64,000 nt of DNA from sequence record OP114734.1; one strand, given 5' to 3'. The DNA comes from Escherichia phage vB_ESM-pEJ01. A model generated the notes under the pieces. It worked only from the letters and a program-made list of their open reading frames with translations, was not told the DNA's origin and did not search any database. Below, in pieces: positions 3,678 through 15,349 of the stretch (position 1 is its first letter; every line of letters starts with the position of its first letter). A program made the position numbers and the translations under genes.

Positions 3678-4074
3678 AATTTGTGTTCCATTCTGGTTTA
3701 AATTTGGTGATCAAAACAGGTTCTTCGATATCGGCAGTGCTTATAATATCCTTACCCGTTGGATTCTCAATATATAACTCAAAGCACTGACGGTAATAGA
3801 ATGTTACTGTCTTACCTTCCTCTAGCGCCTTATGAATATTCTTACTCTTGCGAGTATCCGCCGTTGGTGTTTGTCTGTTAATGCTAGTCCGGTAATAATT
3901 GATCCGCTTTCTGAGATTGACAGTCTGTCCAATATATACCAGTTCATCATCAACCACAATAGCATAAAGAACATTTAAACGGTTCTTCTGAGGCGGTAGA
4001 ATCACATCACCATCTTTACACTCTAAACATGAATATTTAACGAATCCATAGTTTTCTATTAGCTCATTAATCAT
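3613..4074 (-). CDS. denA: endonuclease II (GIY-YIG)
   Basis: 153 aa; NVLYAIVVDDELVYIGQTVNLRKRINYYRT matches remembered T4 EndoII almost residue for residue; SD GAGGAAAGG upstream. Confidence 0.85.
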   Translation of the reverse strand: MINELIENYGFVKYSCLECKDGDVILPPQKNRLNVLYAIVVDDELVYIGQTVNLRKRINYYRTSINRQTPTADTRKSKNIHKALEEGKTVTFYYRQCFELYIENPTGKDIISTADIEEPVLITKFKPEWNTNYVNKRKQQKSFSIVQKSDGTM

Positions 4075-4090
4075 TATCCTTTCCTCACGT

Positions 4091-4117
4091 CACAACAAAG
4101 GCGGGATTTCTCCCGCC
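4091..4117 (-). terminator. rho-independent terminator after ORF 4125..4523
   Basis: hairpin GGCGGGAGAAATCCCGCC followed by T-rich tract on the minus strand. Confidence 0.55.
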
Positions 4118-4124
4118 CACCTTA

Positions 4125-4523
4125 TTAACTTTCCAGAATATCGCGAGCTTCGTTACGCTCCTTGATGATTTTCAGGACAAATTCCAGTTTTTCTTTGTTC
4201 AGCGTTCCATTTTCCATTGCTTCTTTGACGGTAAACACTCCGCCACCTTGCCCGTATACAGTGACAGTGATTTCACCTAACATCGTGGTATGAAAACCTC
4301 CAATTTTCGGTGATTCGAAAGAAACAATTACCTCGCGGACAGTATTACCGTCGTTGATTTCTGAGAGGGTAATGTCGTTTTTGTAGGCGGTTGCTTTAAC
4401 CATACGGATCAGCATAGTCTGATCTGGGGAGATGGTCATTTTGTCCATTGCATGTTGCAATGCAGCGTAACCGAAAACTTTAACGAAGTCCAGAACGTCT
4501 TTGCGAGTTTGAAATTTAATCAT
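4125..4523 (-). CDS. hypothetical protein
   Basis: 132 aa; own promoter (4557..4585) and SD AAGGAG 7 nt upstream; terminator downstream. Confidence 0.55.
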   Translation of the reverse strand: MIKFQTRKDVLDFVKVFGYAALQHAMDKMTISPDQTMLIRMVKATAYKNDITLSEINDGNTVREVIVSFESPKIGGFHTTMLGEITVTVYGQGGGVFTVKEAMENGTLNKEKLEFVLKIIKERNEARDILES

Positions 4524-4556
4524 CTTGATACTCCTTAGTTGTTTTGGTATGGGAGT

Positions 4557-4585
4557 ATCTTACTACTCCCGTGATATGCTGTCAA
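4557..4585 (-). promoter_or_regulatory. sigma70-like early promoter (TTGACA-17-TAAGAT) with -10 in hairpin loop
   Basis: minus-strand TTGACA at 4580-4585, 17 nt spacer, TAAGAT at 4557-4562; hairpin GGGAGTA/TACTCCC encloses the -10. Confidence 0.55.
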
Positions 4586-4593
4586 CTGCTTTT

Positions 4594-4743
4594 TTATGCA
4601 ACCGCAAACATCAACATTTGAACATTCTTGGCTGTCTGGCTTTCAAAGTTCTGACATTCTTTGATAATGTCCTCTACTTTCTCGCCGGAGATCTCCGCGT
4701 AAGTTTCGATTGCCATTTTCAGTACCGAGTCAAAGTTGTTCAT
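4594..4743 (-). CDS. small protein (49 aa), not in ORF track
   Basis: ATG at 4743 preceded by AAGGAG; own upstream promoter; translates MNNFDSVLKMAIETYAEISGEKVEDIIKECQNFESQTAKNVQMLMFAVA. Confidence 0.4.
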   Translation of the reverse strand: MNNFDSVLKMAIETYAEISGEKVEDIIKECQNFESQTAKNVQMLMFAVA

Positions 4744-4783
4744 TTGATTCTCCTTAAAGTGTATTTCGTTTCGATGGGGGGGT

Positions 4784-4812
4784 ATATTACTACCCCCGTT
4801 TCATGCTGTCAA
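4784..4812 (-). promoter_or_regulatory. sigma70-like early promoter (TTGACA-17-TAATAT) with GGGGG/CCCCC hairpin
   Basis: same cassette architecture as 4557..4585. Confidence 0.5.
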
Positions 4813-5031
4813 CTACTTTTTAATGACAAGTTCGAATTTTGCTACCTTGCGTCCTCGTTTATTGAAAGCAACCCACGGACGGTTTTCAATGTAGAACAAT
4901 TCTTCGCCAATAATGAATACTGGCTGATTGTAAAGGCGACCCATCAGGTCACGCTGGCGAATGGTAGTAGATTCGTATACTTCGCCTACTACAAAGTGCT
5001 TGCTGATAGAGTCGGTGCAAGTAAATTTCAT
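4813..5031 (-). CDS. small protein, member of a paralog pair (see 32267..32473)
   Basis: 72 aa; SD AAGGAG; C-terminal ...VAKFELVIKK resembles ...VAKFEIIE of ORF 32267..32473. Confidence 0.5.
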   Translation of the reverse strand: MKFTCTDSISKHFVVGEVYESTTIRQRDLMGRLYNQPVFIIGEELFYIENRPWVAFNKRGRKVAKFELVIKK

Positions 5032-5064
5032 TTTGATTCTCCTTTGTTTCGTTTCGATGTGGGT

Positions 5065-5093
5065 ATATTACTACCACCGTTATTCAGTGTCAA
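5065..5093 (-). promoter_or_regulatory. sigma70-like early promoter (TTGACA-17-TAATAT)
   Basis: third copy of the promoter cassette. Confidence 0.5.
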
Positions 5094-9985: not shown

Positions 9986-11206
9986 TTATACTGCCATTTG
10001 AGCGGTGATCGCTGGATGGCTTTGATAGTTGTGAATTTTAAAATCTTTCGGAGTCTTTGTCAATACCTCATCTAAAGATTTAAATTCCGGCAACTCAATT
10101 GTTGGTTTATCAAACGGAACACGGCTTAACTGTTCCATAACTTGATCAAAATGGTTTTTGTAAATGTGAGTATCTCCACCAGAGAAAATCAGTTCTCCTA
10201 CCTCAAGATCACACATTTTCGCTATGATGTGAGTTAACAGCGCATAGCTGGCGACGTTAAAGGGCAAGCCCAAAAAGCTGTCTACGCTTCGCTGAAACCA
10301 CATACAAGACAGTTTACCTTCATTGACGTAGAATTGTACGAACGGATGACATACACCCAATACAGCATTATGTGTTCCTTGTACGTTCCATGAGTCAATG
10401 ATGATACGTCGATCCGTTGGATTGTTTTTAATTTGTTCAATCACGTTTTGTAACTGGTCTTCCCAAATCTTCGGGCGATAGACATATTCTTCATCGTCTT
10501 TAGTGCTTGATGTGTCTACGTCCATACTAACAAACATCGTGGTATCCGGTGCTATAATATCCCCACCCAGATAATCACTATCAAGCAGATAACCGAAATA
10601 ACCATCATCTACCCATTCCTGGAATCCCCACAAGCAATATGCATCATTAACAAAATTAGATTGAGTCTTCCAGTGGTCTGCTACCAGAATATAATCAAAC
10701 TCTTCATAACGCATACCACGCCAGATAGCACATAAACGGTCTTCTGTGTCATTGGTTGGCGTAAAGTCTTCTACCCACGGGTGCTTAAATGTATGTGTAT
10801 ATTTGCTCTTAACGCGCTTAATTTTGATTTCACCATGTGGATGAATCGGTTTGCGTCTCCACGCCATACCATACATATTGCCGACATTATAACCATTGAA
10901 TCGCAAGGGATTCTTTTCTTTCATATCAAGACAGTTGCCGCGCCAAATATCAAAGGCTTCCTCGTCAAACTTGCCGCGTGTAATTTCCTGTAAGCGACGG
11001 CGGTCAAGTGATCCCTCCATAAACCATAGCAATTCGCCAATTACAGAGGCTGTAGCCATCTTTTTAGTGGTCAGTAATGGGAAACCCTTGCTTAAATCAA
11101 TTCGCATCTCTGCGCCGAATTTAGAGAGCGTACCTACCCCCGTGCGGTCTTCACGAGGACAGCCATTATCAAGAACATCACGCAATAGTTTCAAATATTC
11201 TTTCAT
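9986..11206 (-). CDS. td: thymidylate synthase with ~115 aa in-frame insertion
   Basis: 406 aa; N- and C-terminal thirds match remembered T4 Td (C-terminus HPAITAQMAV vs T4 HPPIKGKMAV); extra segment between the WR motif and the ...DRRIIIDSWN block. Confidence 0.85.
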   Translation of the reverse strand: MKEYLKLLRDVLDNGCPREDRTGVGTLSKFGAEMRIDLSKGFPLLTTKKMATASVIGELLWFMEGSLDRRRLQEITRGKFDEEAFDIWRGNCLDMKEKNPLRFNGYNVGNMYGMAWRRKPIHPHGEIKIKRVKSKYTHTFKHPWVEDFTPTNDTEDRLCAIWRGMRYEEFDYILVADHWKTQSNFVNDAYCLWGFQEWVDDGYFGYLLDSDYLGGDIIAPDTTMFVSMDVDTSSTKDDEEYVYRPKIWEDQLQNVIEQIKNNPTDRRIIIDSWNVQGTHNAVLGVCHPFVQFYVNEGKLSCMWFQRSVDSFLGLPFNVASYALLTHIIAKMCDLEVGELIFSGGDTHIYKNHFDQVMEQLSRVPFDKPTIELPEFKSLDEVLTKTPKDFKIHNYQSHPAITAQMAV

Positions 11207-11447
11207 CCCACATCACCTTTTTCTTATTGATTGCTTTCTTACGCAGTTTTGCTACTGTCTCGTCAATGTCTATAAAGATAACACCACGGTCGAATATAGT
11301 AGCAGGTCTTGATATATCGCTATTTTCTTGCACAGGAAGCCATGATGCGCTCGCTTCATCATAGAGATATTGTAAACCGTAATAATCTACGGCTACTGCG
11401 TAGTTTTCACTGGTAGCTGACCATAATTGAATAATACCGACTTTCAT
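11178..11447 (-). CDS. hypothetical protein
   Basis: start re-set to MKVGIIQ ATG at 11447, which overlaps the stop of the upstream micro-ORF (TAATG). Confidence 0.45.
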   Translation of the reverse strand: MKVGIIQLWSATSENYAVAVDYYGLQYLYDEASASWLPVQENSDISRPATIFDRGVIFIDIDETVAKLRKKAINKKKVMWDERIFETIA

Positions 11448-11539
11448 TATTGTTCCCGTCCGCAATGTAAACACCGACTACCAGCAAACATCAAAGATTC
11501 ACCACAATGTTTGCACTCATAATCTGTCAGAATTTTCAT
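11447..11539 (-). CDS. zinc-ribbon micro-protein (30 aa, CxxC...CxxC), not in ORF track
   Basis: MKILTDYECKHCGESLMFAGSRCLHCGREQ; SD GAAGG inside the frd 3' end; stop overlaps next gene start. Confidence 0.45.
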   Translation of the reverse strand: MKILTDYECKHCGESLMFAGSRCLHCGREQ

Positions 11540-11540
11540 G

Positions 11541-12122
11541 TTACGCCTTCTTACGTTCTAAAATTTGTTCGCTGATCAGGTAATCATCAAGGAAGTAATT
11601 ATGTTCTTCTTTTGTTGCAAAGTCAAAATATAATTCCTGAATCATTTCCTTAGAGATGCCAACATCATATTCAAACAGATCATTAATTCCTGATCGTTGA
11701 ACATACGTTAACACAATACGGTCCGCAAAGTCAACTGCTTTTTCAATCAGGGAAGGTCCGCCAATAACGCTTACCAAACCTTGCAATTTCTCTATGACTT
11801 CTAATAATTCCTTCAATCCACCATCATTAGTAATCTCGGTATACACATCTGGTTGGTCGCCGTTTTTTGCTTTCGGTGCTGGCTTACTGGTATCGGTGCT
11901 AACAACCACATTCACACGACCTTCCAGTGCTTTAGGGAGACTTTCAAAGGTATTACGTCCCATTACAACCGCCGCAAGATCAACATCTCCCATAGTGCGC
12001 ATTTTAAAGTTTTCCATGTCCTTTTTGATTGGACGTCCCCACGGTAAACCGCCTTTAAAACCAAAAGCCCAATTTTCATCTGACATTTTAGTATCACCAA
12101 TCGCAAATACACATTGAATCAT
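11541..12122 (-). CDS. frd: dihydrofolate reductase
   Basis: 193 aa; DHFR fold motifs (...GLPWGRP...); upstream of td as in T4. Confidence 0.85.
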   Translation of the reverse strand: MIQCVFAIGDTKMSDENWAFGFKGGLPWGRPIKKDMENFKMRTMGDVDLAAVVMGRNTFESLPKALEGRVNVVVSTDTSKPAPKAKNGDQPDVYTEITNDGGLKELLEVIEKLQGLVSVIGGPSLIEKAVDFADRIVLTYVQRSGINDLFEYDVGISKEMIQELYFDFATKEEHNYFLDDYLISEQILERKKA

Positions 12123-12137
12123 AATATAAATCTCCCA

Positions 12138-12467
12138 TCAAATCAGTTTGAAATAGTTTTCGTTTACATTTTCTTCTGTGATTGCTGTCTTAAATTCTTG
12201 ACCGTTATCCGGTGTGATGAAATAACGGTCTGAATAATCACGAAAACGTTTTAAGTGAGATACCCCAACATTAACACCATGTTCCCAAAAACGAAAGGTA
12301 ATCATTTTTGGTTCATATCGATAGTCGCTGGTTAACACAGTACCATCACCGCGACGGGCTTCATAAACCGTAATACATTCACGATTAGCGGCTTTAAGGC
12401 ATTCTTCAATAGTGCCGCACGAGATAATACTTACTTTTTCATCTACGATTTGTTCTACAGTCCACAT
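12138..12467 (-). CDS. hypothetical protein
   Basis: 110 aa from MWTVEQ; promoter 12499..12527 and SD AGAGAGGA upstream; track ORF start at 12527 lies inside the promoter. Confidence 0.5.
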   Translation of the reverse strand: MWTVEQIVDEKVSIISCGTIEECLKAANRECITVYEARRGDGTVLTSDYRYEPKMITFRFWEHGVNVGVSHLKRFRDYSDRYFITPDNGQEFKTAITEENVNENYFKLI

Positions 12468-12498
12468 AATATAATCCTCTCTTTGTTTCGATATGTGC

Positions 12499-12527
12499 AT
12501 TATACTTTGATTCTTACAAACTTGCAA
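12499..12527 (-). promoter_or_regulatory. sigma70-like promoter (TTGCAA-17-TATAAT)
   Basis: canonical spacing; drives ORF 12138..12467. Confidence 0.5.
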
Positions 12528-12937
12528 CCTAATTCTTTTTCAATTTGTTTCTGGCGCTCTATGTCCTGAGTAATTTTGTATTTGTGTTCCGGTTCGTCGA
12601 TTTCATAAGCAACGTTATTAACCGGATCATAACCATCAATTCTATACCCCAATATAGGGTATTGTCGTTTTAATTTTATATTCAAAAGCTGTTCTATTGT
12701 GTCTAGTGCAATCTTTTCGGCAGCTGATAATCCAAAACGTATTCCAAAATATTGTTTCCTCACCGCTTCCGCAAGTTCTTCTGTTAAAATTATTTGCTTC
12801 TGTTTTCTACCATACACATCAAAATATTCACTATAATCATAACACAGACCTGTGTTTCTTGCAACCTTTTTTATGTCTCTAGTTACATGGGCATGACGTT
12901 TATTAAATTCTTTCGCAATATCCAGTGAGCTAATCAT
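12500..12937 (-). CDS. Rha-like regulatory protein with C-terminal nuclease-like segment
   Basis: 145 aa; N-terminus ISSLDIAKEFNKRHAHVTRDIKK resembles phage Rha family; C-terminus GYRIDGY...AYEIDEPEH acidic motif; occupies the T4 frd.1-frd.3 slot. Confidence 0.45.
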   Translation of the reverse strand: MISSLDIAKEFNKRHAHVTRDIKKVARNTGLCYDYSEYFDVYGRKQKQIILTEELAEAVRKQYFGIRFGLSAAEKIALDTIEQLLNIKLKRQYPILGYRIDGYDPVNNVAYEIDEPEHKYKITQDIERQKQIEKELGCKFVRIKV

Positions 12938-12964
12938 TTTATCCTCCGTTGCTTAGATGAGTGT

Positions 12965-12992
12965 ATTATACATTACCACATCATCATGTCAA
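12965..12992 (-). promoter_or_regulatory. sigma70-like promoter (TTGACA-16-TATAAT)
   Basis: upstream of ORF 12500..12937 with SD GGAGG. Confidence 0.45.
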
Positions 12993-13015
12993 CACCTTTT
13001 CATAAAATTTTAGGC

Positions 13016-13044
13016 AATAAAAAAGCCTCCCCTAAGGAAGGCTT
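13016..13044 (-). terminator. rho-independent terminator after gene 32
   Basis: GC-rich imperfect hairpin followed by T-run on the minus strand, just after the gp32 stop. Confidence 0.5.
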
Positions 13045-13053
13045 TAAAATTCA

Positions 13054-14028
13054 TTACATCCCTAACAGAGCGTCAAGATCATCCAGATCAGAAGCGGAGG
13101 AAGTACCGCCACCCAGGTCCAGAGATGCCATCAGGTCATCAGCGGAAGAACTCGACGCTGCGATAGCTGCGGTAGAAACAGACGCGGCGATAGCTGAGGT
13201 AGTGCCAGCATCGAATGCATTCATCTGTGCGTCAAAATCGTCAAGCTGGCTGTTAATCGCTGCCGCAGCACTGGAAGCCGCCGCACCAGCTACCATAGAA
13301 ACGCCCATAGTTTTCTTAAATTTGGTTTCCAGTTCATCGAACGGTTTAAACTGGCTAGGCGCTACAATCTCACCCAGATCAACCATGTTTTCCATCAGAT
13401 ATTTCTGATATGCTTCGTCTTCAATCTTCGGAAGCTGTGATTGCTGCATGAAACGAGAATCATCATAGTTCTGGTGTTTATCAACCTTCTTAGCTTTCAG
13501 GAGGAAGTTAGCACCGGAGAACACACAAGTTACATCTACAGGAACTTCGCCCATATCGGTATTCACGTTCACCATTGCAACGATCTTATCATAAATTTTC
13601 TGACCGAAGCGGAATTTGAATACATTACCTTCATTTTCTGGTGCTTGAGGATCTTTCAGTACCAGAATATTTGCGTAGTAAGAGGCTTTACGCTTAATCA
13701 GTTGCCATTCGGTTTTATCGGTATTGTACAGGTCTTTTTCGTTAATATATTTGCACACAGGGCAAGAATCAAAATCACCGTGGGTGCTTGAGCAGTTTTC
13801 CCAATACCATTTACCATTAACTTTGAAGGAATGGTTTACCAGTTTCACAATCGGCAGACCGTCTTCTGTCTTAGACGGCAGGAAGCGAATCAGGGCTTCA
13901 CCGTTACCTGCTGCATCAGTCTTAATCTTCCACTCTTTCGGATCTTCTTTGGAGAAACCGTTGCCACCTTTCAGTGCGGCCAGTTGAGCTTGCAGTTTGG
14001 AAGAATCTTGACGACGAAACATGTTCAT
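13054..14028 (-). CDS. 32: single-stranded DNA-binding protein gp32
   Basis: 324 aa; GNGEALIRFLPSK, WYWENCSSTHGDFDSCPVC zinc site and acidic Ala/Ser-rich C-tail match remembered T4 gp32. Confidence 0.93.
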   Translation of the reverse strand: MNMFRRQDSSKLQAQLAALKGGNGFSKEDPKEWKIKTDAAGNGEALIRFLPSKTEDGLPIVKLVNHSFKVNGKWYWENCSSTHGDFDSCPVCKYINEKDLYNTDKTEWQLIKRKASYYANILVLKDPQAPENEGNVFKFRFGQKIYDKIVAMVNVNTDMGEVPVDVTCVFSGANFLLKAKKVDKHQNYDDSRFMQQSQLPKIEDEAYQKYLMENMVDLGEIVAPSQFKPFDELETKFKKTMGVSMVAGAAASSAAAAINSQLDDFDAQMNAFDAGTTSAIAASVSTAAIAASSSSADDLMASLDLGGGTSSASDLDDLDALLGM

Positions 14029-14088: not shown

Positions 14089-14685
14089 TTAATTGCTTGT
14101 CAATACTTTATCAATTATATCTAACAGTTTTGGCTTTCTATTTTCAAATTCTAACATCTCTTCGGGAGAAATGTCAACTACTTCTGTTTTGTTGAAAAAG
14201 TTTGGGTCTATAGCATCAGCAACAAAGTTTCTCGCAAGTGCTGCCGCTTTCTCATGAACATATATTCCCAAATATATCAACTTCTTTCTTTCGACCTGAA
14301 TATTGGCAACATATTTACCATCTCGTTTATAAAGACTAACACCGATATATTCAGACGATCGACCTTTCTGTTTACCCATATTTCTTGAGTTTTGTTGCTC
14401 GTTCGCATCTCTCAAGTTTTCAATCCGATTATCTGTTATAATTCGGTTAACATGGTCAACGTATTTTGGCATGTATCCATGATGCATAAAGAAAATTATT
14501 CTATGCTCTTTATGATGTTTACCATCGATACACACCAATCTGTATCCATGACTAGGATTAACTCCACCCGCTCTAGATCCGACTTTATGCTTTCGGTTTG
14601 TCGATATCTTGCGAATCAGCTTACCGTTATCATATTTAAAGAGTTCATGACAACGAGCATACAATTCAGGATCATATGTTTTCAC
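14089..14685 (-). mobile_element. freestanding HNH homing endonuclease with AP2-like DNA-binding domain
   Basis: 198 aa; HNH core ...KEHRIIFFMHHGYMPKYVDHVNRIITDNRIENLRDANEQQNSRN followed by YIGVSLYKRDGKYVANIQV AP2-like module; inserted between genes 32 and 59. Confidence 0.8.
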
Positions 14686-15349
14686 CTTTTAACCTCGATA
14701 TTTCTTTACACTCTTTAACTACTTTAACAAATAATGCTCTTGCTTTTGCGGCGTCAATAACAAGTAGTTTCTTGTACGCCTTCATTTTAACACTATAAGT
14801 TTGCCAAATCAAGTCTTTGGCTACCTTGTCGTGTGCGTCGATTATATTTAGAAAGCTATCTAACAACATAAACGACTCAAACGATATAATCCGATTTTGC
14901 AGTAGTTTAAAGATACCGCTAGTTTCGGTTGCGGGATTGTATGTAATTAGCTCTTTAAGAGTAACCCCGCGTTTCTCTGAGAAGTATACCAGACTTTTAA
15001 TGTCATCGTCAAATCGTGTTGCTGCATCGGTTATCTTTCCTATGTATTCCATATAAAAGCCGTATGCGTCAACATCAGTGATTTCACCTACCCATGCATC
15101 GGTATTAGCTACCAGATTGCTTAGGAATAGGAAGTATAATTCTCTTAGATTGTACTTTTCCGCTAATTTTGCGAAATAATACTTATCTCTGCGTTTATTG
15201 AATGCGGCATCAGACAACCGCATCCTCCAATTGTATTTTACGCAATCATAACGCCCGTTCATGTGAGCTTTCATCATGCAATATAACATATACACAGATT
15301 TAGCATTAATTCGCATATCTGGATCTGGAGGAAGACGGTTTCTGATCAT
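14672..15349 (-). CDS. 59: helicase loader gp59
   Basis: 225 aa; KSVYMLYCMMKAHMNGRYDCVKYNW and LVANTDAWVGEI match remembered T4 gp59. Confidence 0.88.
   Translation of the reverse strand: MIRNRLPPDPDMRINAKSVYMLYCMMKAHMNGRYDCVKYNWRMRLSDAAFNKRRDKYYFAKLAEKYNLRELYFLFLSNLVANTDAWVGEITDVDAYGFYMEYIGKITDAATRFDDDIKSLVYFSEKRGVTLKELITYNPATETSGIFKLLQNRIISFESFMLLDSFLNIIDAHDKVAKDLIWQTYSVKMKAYKKLLVIDAAKARALFVKVVKECKEISRLKGENI

Follow-up and report, generated by a model that had tools for sequence, protein, structure and literature searches.

The stretch of DNA analysed here, hereafter the window, comprises 64,000 nucleotides (nt) of Escherichia phage vB_ESM-pEJ01 (record OP114734.1), an RB49-like, T4-type phage of the genus Krischvirus. 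Between gene 32 and frd, its minus strand carries two open reading frames (ORFs) of 145 and 109 amino acids (aa), referred to as ORF145 and ORF109, in the order 59 / HNH / 32 / ORF145 / ORF109 / frd / small ORFs / td (Table 1). The ORF145 product is identical to UYE95259.1, a 'hypothetical protein' of the same phage. An earlier sequence-only reading had placed both ORFs correctly and had interpreted them as a Rha-like regulator with a nuclease-like C-terminus and a partner ORF. Profile searches, structure prediction and comparison with relatives point instead to a mobile single-gene cassette that is predicted to encode a DNA-binding nuclease.

Insertion anatomy of the 145-aa gene

ORF145 lies in a 466-bp unit between direct repeats, and this cassette has been inserted between two copies, now diverged, of the segment running from the -10 box to the ribosome-binding site (RBS) of the ORF109 early promoter. 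The repeats are about 36 nt long and 466 bp apart, and a 26-nt core (12949-12974 in copy B) is 77% identical between the copies. Alignment with relatives revealed a single hybrid copy in phage JSE, where nothing lies between ORF109 and gene 32 and where promoter P1 directly precedes ORF109 and is predicted to drive it. In phage KFS-EC, the same boundaries enclose an unrelated 109-aa ORFan. In addition, the G+C content of the cassette is about 34%, compared with 37-51% in its neighbours.

At the level of consensus, each of the two ORFs has its own promoter, as the sequence-only reading had proposed. The predicted promoter P1, located downstream of the gene 32 terminator hairpin, agrees with the sigma70 consensus at 12 of 12 positions, and the predicted promoter P2 at 10 of 12. 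P2 is a hybrid: its -35 element is formed by the codons G-C-K of ORF145, whose TAA stop (12502-12500) falls within the -10 box. The same arrangement can be seen in the annotation of phage GEC-3S, in which the -35 box lies inside the 3' end of the slot occupant. No terminator was found between ORF145 and ORF109.

These boundaries have the make-up of PeSL elements, which have been defined and shown to mediate ORF shuffling in the phages RB49, phi1 and JSE (PMC2839356). The gene 32 hairpin, which is found conserved in both JSE and KFS-EC, provides the stem-loop of a PeSL-type element upstream of the cassette, and the composite is complete, with the gene 32 stop codon (13054-13056), the hairpin (13045-13022), TTGACA/TATAAT (12992-12965), the Shine-Dalgarno sequence GGAGGA (12947-12942) and the ATG (12937) following one another. 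Furthermore, the ORF is flanked by repeats and shows the expected insertion, deletion and replacement polymorphism, given the single repeat copy in JSE and the other cargo in KFS-EC. The cassette thus resembles the PeSL cassettes described for the same phage group (Arbiol et al., 2010, PMC2839356; Comeau et al., 2014, PMC4122927) in its elements (stop codon, AT-rich tract, stem-loop, sigma70 -35/-10, Shine-Dalgarno sequence, start codon) and in being an ORF between repeated promoter elements, exactly where close relatives differ by insertion, deletion or replacement. It differs from them in that the downstream repeat element lacks a stem-loop of its own, and in its cargo. Whereas the cargo described so far consists mostly of ORFans, here it is a predicted nuclease, and a nuclease-driven route may therefore add to plain recombination.

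Table 1. Genes, promoters, repeats and protein domains in and around the gene 32-frd interval of the window.
Feature	Position (nt)	Strand	Remarks
gp59	14672-15349	-	
HNH_3+AP2 gene, 198 aa	14089-14685	-	between gp59 and gene 32
gene 32	13054-14028	-	stop codon 13054-13056
gene 32 intrinsic terminator hairpin	13022-13045	-	AAAGCCTTCC-TTAG-GGGAGGCTTT plus T-run; 10-bp stem, 5 GC pairs
promoter P1 (sigma70, early-type; predicted), for ORF145	12965-12992	-	TTGACA (12992-12987), 16-nt spacer, TATAAT (12970-12965)
direct repeat copy B	12939-12974		-10 box to Shine-Dalgarno GGAGGA (12947-12942); gene 32-proximal boundary
ORF145, 145 aa	12500-12937	-	ATG at 12937, TAA 12502-12500
N-terminal domain, residues 1-63	12749-12937	-	helix-helix-beta hairpin-helix, winged-helix type (AlphaFold2); Phage_pRha match
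C-terminal domain, residues 72-145	12503-12724	-	alpha-beta-beta-beta-alpha-beta core, Vsr-like PD-(D/E)xK nuclease (AlphaFold2, residues 72-144)
catalytic motif	12563-12637	-	YRID101GY ... YE112ID114E115PEH118 ... D125
promoter P2 (predicted), for ORF109	12499-12527	-	TTGCAA (12527-12522), 17-nt spacer, TATAAT (12504-12499)
direct repeat copy A	12473-12508		-10 box to RBS of ORF109; frd-proximal boundary
ORF109, 109 aa	12138-12467	-	ATG at 12467
frd	11541-12122	-	
td	9986-11206	-	

A DNA-binding head on a Vsr-like nuclease module

Two Pfam families are found in the 145-aa protein above their gathering scores, namely Phage_pRha (PF09669) at residues 2-54 (E 3e-8; 34.6 bits, gathering 29.9) and DUF559 (PF04480) at residues 82-142 (E 5e-5; 23.5 bits, gathering 20.6). 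An AlphaFold2 model built on 42 homologues, with a mean predicted local distance difference test score (pLDDT) of 87.3, likewise has two domains, and the Rha-type N-terminus and nuclease-like C-terminus read from the sequence are both upheld. The winged-helix head (residues 1-63) forms a separate region that is predicted to bind DNA, and the C-terminal domain has a restriction-endonuclease-like fold of Vsr type. The PADLOC model mREase_II, which is of PvuRts1I type, matches residues 100-145 (E 3e-4), and the GYRIDGY...YEIDEPEH motif pointed out earlier corresponds to residues 97-103 and 111-118.

The proposed role as a regulator was not supported by these comparisons, since only the N-terminal 60 or so residues match Rha and the rest is a Vsr-like nuclease with conserved catalytic residues. 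The Phage_pRha match spans only model positions 1-61 of 91, the NCBIfam Rha model TIGR02681 scores 25.4 bits, under its cut-off of 45.95, and the Rha/Ant/anti-repressor families of PHROG match the N-terminal part only. Compared with the Rha family (PF09669), about 55 N-terminal residues match the DNA-binding part, whereas the remainder of the model and the usual size of 240-280 aa are missing, a nuclease standing in their place. Homologues carry the name 'Rha family transcriptional regulator' in their sources, and these labels are transferred annotation.

The catalytic residues of the nuclease module are well conserved. Among the 42 full-length homologues, D101, E112, D114, E115, H118 and R128 are invariant and D125 is nearly so; in a wider set, 148 cluster representatives at 50% identity, D101 and E112 never vary, and conservation of D114, E115, H118 and D125 is 90% or higher. 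In the profile of the C-terminal domain, D101/E112/D114/E115/H118 align to D61/E72/D74/E75/H78 of AbaSI, the E-I-D-E-x-x-H strand being paired with E72-V-D74-E75-G-H77-H78, and AbaSI cleavage is abolished by D61A and by E75A (PMC4081097). The module therefore shares with the modification-dependent restriction enzymes PvuRts1I and AbaSI the E-x-D-E-x-(H)-H motif of strand 3 and the strand-2 Asp at the same spacing, and these enzymes prove that the active-site variant makes double-strand breaks as a dimer (PMC4081097). In addition, D101 and H118 are 17 residues apart, as are D196 and H213 of I-Bth0305I (PMC3239194). From this spacing and the fold, we infer that D101, E112, H118 and D125 are equivalent to the catalytic residues of I-Bth0305I. 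A Vsr-like set is thus present, comprising a metal-binding Asp, an acidic residue at the position of Vsr Phe62, a general-base His and a downstream Asp. Because the catalytic set is well conserved and the domain matches and the fold support a Vsr/DUF559 type, we regard the C-terminal domain as a nuclease that is very probably active and Mg2+-dependent.

Searches against the Protein Data Bank (PDB) gave no match with the single 145-aa sequence and only one insignificant, unrelated match with the full-length family profile. With the C-domain profile, 3hrl was matched at E 3.7e-4 and PvuRts1I and AbaSI at weaker scores, whereas 3r3p was not reached. Vsr-like ('EDxHD') homing endonucleases include I-Bth0305I, from the recA intron of Bacillus phage 0305phi8-36, and also Hef of T4-related phages, as stated in PMC3239194. 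No sequence homology to I-Bth0305I or Hef was detected by the PDB sequence and profile searches or by tblastn, which returned no match in T4-like phages; the relationship is therefore at the level of fold and active site only. A survey of PD-(D/E)xK nucleases places Vsr, DUF559 and I-Bth0305I in one clade, clade 58 (PMC3424549). Where I-Bth0305I has NUMOD/helix-turn-helix repeats, the protein studied here has a Rha-type winged-helix head; it is about half as long (145 against 266 aa), and its motif, D...ExDExxH...D, has a DUF559/PvuRts1I flavour. The two are 13% identical in a structural alignment, and neither PDB sequence search returned I-Bth0305I. Compared with the DUF559/Vsr/DUF2726 clade of PD-(D/E)xK nucleases (PF04480; structure 3hrl), in which a typical DUF559 protein is bacterial and chromosomal, the domain is here a minimal module at the C-terminus of a protein with a phage DNA-binding head.

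Searched on its own, the nuclease module yielded 2137 representatives (50%-identity clusters, E <= 1e-3), in which it is invariably C-terminal and the proteins measure 75-356 aa. Among the top 148, its N-terminal partners are Rha (35), Bro-N (11), NUMOD3 (10), AntA (6), KilA-N (2), ORF6N (1) and a homing-endonuclease-associated repeat (1), and 86 of the 148 have a DUF559 match in Pfam. One member with NUMOD3-like repeats (P0256) is 37-40% identical in its N-terminal region to SegD homing endonucleases of KVP40-like phages. Foldseek comparison with viral models returned giant-virus Bro-N proteins, DUF559 proteins and several phage proteins annotated 'homing endonuclease'. This pairing of a nuclease module with exchangeable DNA-binding heads is the hallmark of homing endonucleases in phages. 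No described fusion of Rha or Bro-N with DUF559/Vsr was found in the open-access literature, which does not prove that the fusion is undescribed. An ORF that splits nrdD in Vibrio phage 355E48.1, which as a relative would have been direct evidence of homing, was rejected, being HNH/I-HmuI-like and unrelated. In this phage (L011 5446-8225), nrdD is annotated in three fragments, with the 168-aa HNH/I-HmuI-like gene between parts 1 and 2; the phage also encodes a protein of Bro-N plus DUF559 type (3722-4228) that is related to the nuclease module studied here.

Occurrence in Krischviruses and prophages

A 2.8-kb query around the locus matched 63 records of the phage collection, mostly Krischviruses, at identities of at most 97%. 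The 145-aa gene is present in none of the roughly 60 matching Krischvirus records, and its earlier description as an insertion is thereby borne out. The slot between gene 32 and ORF109 is polymorphic across the genus, and genes annotated as endonucleases are often found in it. RB49 has a 485-aa CapR/treble-clef zinc-finger gene annotated as an endonuclease, GEC-3S and Skers have genes of the same kind with 392 aa, and shorter, truncated forms occur as well; Sf20 has a 281-aa gene annotated as similar to the RB49 gene (gp240), and MIZ4 has a 182-aa gene annotated 'endonuclease'. The occupants in RB49 (L003 1604-3061) and GEC-3S (L021 1104-2282) contain repeated CapR homology domains and a treble-clef zinc finger; annotated 'endonuclease' or 'GIY-YIG', they gave no nuclease domain in Pfam.

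The exact 145-aa protein was found on 48 contigs, and the eight places that were read are all on Krischvirus contigs, with the gene at this slot and with or without the HNH neighbour. The gene is thus sporadic at a fixed site, occupying one slot in the nine genomes read, the window included, and being absent from the matching phage-collection records. Across these nine genomes, positions 12486-13000 show zero nucleotide differences, and the flanks differ by 1-5%; the 90% cluster of the protein holds only 3 variant sequences, on 4 contigs. The surroundings are dimorphic. Two ORF109 alleles occur in Krischviruses, at about 98-99% and 71-82% nucleotide identity to the window, and the last 300 nt of gene 32 (13054-13353) fall at either 85-92% or 98-100%, the remainder of gene 32 being at 97-99%. 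The ORF109 allele and the 3' end of gene 32 are common to most carriers; in one carrier (L012), however, a different gene 32 3' end (89.7%) abuts an identical cassette.

A second allele of 149 aa (L020) occupies the same slot. About 250 nt are identical between it and the window; this tract takes in some 230 nt that code for the nuclease domain, then the stop codon and the region of P2, and it stops at 12472. Divergence is far greater in the Rha-coding part, and the flanks, too, differ markedly from those of the window (ORF109 70.7%). From these comparisons, the cassette sits at boundaries of genetic exchange, a location that has been reported for nuclease genes of phages in general (PMC10448857).

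ORF109 is an ordinary resident gene of the genus, outside the mobile unit, because it is present in every Krischvirus relative examined, be the slot empty (JSE), filled by an ORFan (KFS-EC) or filled by a large endonuclease-annotated gene (RB49, GEC-3S). The claim that it is a partner of ORF145 was thereby overturned, and its length is 109 aa, one residue short of the 110 first given; a mechanical ORF list extends its start to a TTG at 12527. Profile support for both domains and comparison with relatives had been named earlier as the deciding evidence: both domains are supported and the 145-aa gene is not core content, whereas the 109-aa ORF does occur in all relatives examined. RB49, MIZ4, GEC-3S and Sf20, all without the 145-aa gene, carry the ORF109 allele of the window (98-99% nucleotide identity). 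ORF109 belongs to phrog_16287 (E 2e-72), and its homologues come from Krischvirus-like contigs only. No match was found in Pfam, NCBIfam or PADLOC, and its AlphaFold2 model is unreliable (pLDDT 55).

Outside the genus, the closest relatives of the 145-aa protein are alleles of 156, 160 and 161 aa with 52-65% identity in E. coli and Salmonella prophages, in keeping with the earlier remark that Rha-family proteins normally belong to temperate phages. They occupy one intergenic slot upstream of terminase, flanked by a full-length Rha gene on one side and a divergent 75-aa gene on the other, and where the gene is present it follows, with its own terminator, directly after an upstream terminator hairpin. 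The related prophage region was found in 56 complete E. coli genomes; the two that were read lack the gene, and shorter record spans suggest that most other matching E. coli prophages do as well. The possibility that the head of the prophage homologue had recently been copied from the neighbouring full-length Rha gene, giving an Odn-like chimera, was rejected, as the two are only 33% identical over the head. The gene probably entered the Krischviruses from a temperate-phage homologue, and the junction of capture would lie in the TATAAT box. The prophage homologue ends in ..ATGCAAGTTTGTCCGAATCAAAGTATGA, and the conserved 3' end of the family (..AAAGTATGA in the prophage version) nearly mimics this box. 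Since this 3' end is already promoter-like, it suggests a possible route by which the gene was first captured at the -10 box.

The corresponding interval of T4 contains frd.3, frd.2 and frd.1, and T4 has SegG between 59 and 32. The assignment of both ORFs to the T4 frd.1-frd.3 slot holds for the interval and not for the genes: neither the 145-aa nor the 109-aa ORF is similar to the frd.1, frd.2 or frd.3 proteins of T4, and the correspondence is therefore positional only. The 145-aa protein shows no detectable sequence similarity to T4 SegG. The cassette has much in common with the free-standing Seg/Mob homing endonucleases of T4 (SegG between 59 and 32), both being promoter-equipped single genes in an intergenic position beside gene 32, sporadic among relatives and located at boundaries of mosaic sequence. 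The catalytic fold is GIY-YIG or HNH there and Vsr-like here.

Several observations were made on neighbouring genes. The HNH_3+AP2 gene overlaps the 3' end of gp59 by 14 nt and is present or absent among otherwise near-identical relatives; in T4, its slot is filled by the GIY-YIG endonuclease SegG. The Krischvirus contig with the 149-aa allele carries two more HNH_3+AP2 genes (4496-5068 and 14154-14693), one upstream of dsbA and the other before the gene for the ribonucleotide reductase small subunit, both absent from the other Krischvirus loci read. The thymidylate synthase encoded by td has 406 aa, and its alignment with E. coli ThyA covers only residues 1-82 and 110-264; from this alignment gap, residues of about 83-249 form an insertion of about 140 aa in the variable small domain. 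This long form (406-410 aa) is common to the Krischvirus relatives examined. Between frd and the next ORF lies a 30-aa ORF (11447-11539, minus strand) with two CxxC pairs (MKILTDYECKHCGESLMFAGSRCLHCGREQ), and in RB49 a 93-bp ORF (RB49p237) is annotated at this position.

A proposed homing-type cassette and its alternatives

Altogether, the modular heads, the insertion anatomy, the hot spot, the spread of the cassette, the prophage context, the base composition and the domains with their catalytic residues favour reading the 145-aa gene as a free-standing, homing-endonuclease-like selfish nuclease gene of the Vsr-like class, carried on a promoter-bounded cassette and assisted by PeSL-type recombination. 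We give this reading a probability of roughly 0.55. Rather than an unusual regulator in a virulent phage, the gene is better seen as another selfish nuclease cassette, at a hot spot already known for genes of this kind. According to the proposed mechanism, early transcription of the gene would start at the perfect sigma70 promoter that follows the gene 32 terminator, and the protein would dimerise, as I-Bth0305I and AbaSI do. The Rha head would bind a specific DNA site and the nuclease would cut DNA with Mg2+. In a mixed infection, relatives without the gene would be cut at or near the 32-frd interval, and recombinational repair from the carrier genome would copy the cassette together with adjacent markers. 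The repeated promoter segments of PeSL type would supply homology for gain, loss and replacement of the cassette.

Several points weigh against this reading. All that goes beyond a DNA-binding nuclease on a mobile cassette is inference. A length of 145 aa is small for a site-specific enzyme, and the similarity to proven homing endonucleases is at fold level only, as the 13% identity to I-Bth0305I illustrates. The carriers were found by identical-protein look-up, which biases the sample towards low divergence. A clean gradient of co-conversion around the cassette was looked for and rejected, the flanks being mosaic, with dimorphic ORF109 and gene 32 3' ends in a pattern that is not simple. Finally, insertion, loss and spread could all be accounted for by PeSL-type recombination on its own (PMC2839356), with no nuclease activity involved.

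This last point leads to an alternative that is possible, if on the unlikely side, in which the gene is passive PeSL cargo, a moron-like ORF that homologous recombination shuffles between early-promoter cassettes, a process already described in RB49-like phages, and the nuclease benefits the phage instead of promoting its own spread, for instance through attack on the DNA of competitor phages or prophages, exclusion of superinfecting relatives or processing of host DNA. The promoter/RBS repeats that bound the cassette, the single hybrid copy at the empty site, the upstream terminator and perfect sigma70 promoter that fit the PeSL definition (PMC2839356), and the non-nuclease ORFan between the same boundaries in KFS-EC all agree with it, and Odn of ICP1 documents the domestication of a homing-endonuclease-type nuclease for conflict between mobile elements (PMC8263062). 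However, passive shuffling leaves unexplained why most slot occupants are nuclease-type genes, why the cassette is identical to the nucleotide in diverged backgrounds, and why the same sporadic single-gene pattern recurs in prophages without PeSL elements; nor does a head 33% identical to the neighbouring prophage Rha show any sign of recently borrowed specificity, as in Odn. It is distinctly improbable that the protein acts as a Rha-type transcriptional regulator or anti-repressor whose C-terminal domain serves only for dimerisation or DNA contact. The above-threshold Phage_pRha match, the PHROG regulator and anti-repressor families at the N-terminus and the names given to homologues would suit such a role, but the Rha match is partial, the NCBIfam score is under its cut-off and the name is a transferred annotation. 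The nuclease domain is, moreover, the most conserved part of the protein, with an invariant or nearly invariant D...ExDE..H...D that would be unexpected in a dead scaffold, and the same module is fused to NUMOD3/SegD-like regions. A two-gene system, in which the nuclease and ORF109 act together, for instance as toxin and immunity protein, is largely refuted by distribution, and we consider it very improbable. In its favour, the two genes lie side by side in the same orientation, the lack of a terminator between them makes read-through from P1 likely, and only one of the two ORF109 alleles accompanies the 145-aa allele in the carriers examined. Against this, ORF109 persists where the slot is empty or holds other cargo, its same allele occurs in four phages without the 145-aa gene, the prophage homologues have no ORF109-like neighbour, and ORF109 has no homologues outside Krischvirus-like phages.

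If the homing-type reading is extended to the family as a whole, the small Rha, Bro-N, AntA and KilA-N 'regulators' that end in the module of about 75 residues (more than 2000 clusters at 50% identity) would constitute a large and so far unrecognised class of site-specific nucleases, selfish or weaponised, that reuse transcription-factor heads for target choice. The member studied here would have been captured from a temperate phage and may act in phage conflict, with the Rha head choosing the sites at which co-infecting Krischviruses or resident prophages are cut. This extension is speculative and we regard it as unlikely; if true, the head-swapped 145-aa and 149-aa alleles at one slot would amount to a switch in target specificity.

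Homing endonucleases of the Vsr-like class, PeSL shuffling and hot spots for nucleases near gene 32 are already known; the Rha-headed 145-aa architecture and the head-swapped allele are variations on these themes. An intact Vsr-like nuclease is present in hundreds of small proteins of phages and prophages that bear the label 'Rha family transcriptional regulator', and these proteins probably cleave DNA, which corrects a habit of annotation. The Vsr-like homing endonuclease class would gain a compact two-module architecture of 145 aa, and the pair of 145-aa and 149-aa alleles in one genus, with the same nuclease-domain coding sequence and different heads, offers a natural experiment on specificity swapping. 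Two explanations of genome plasticity in T4-like phages, PeSL promoter cassettes and nuclease-driven exchange, would thus meet at one locus beside gene 32.

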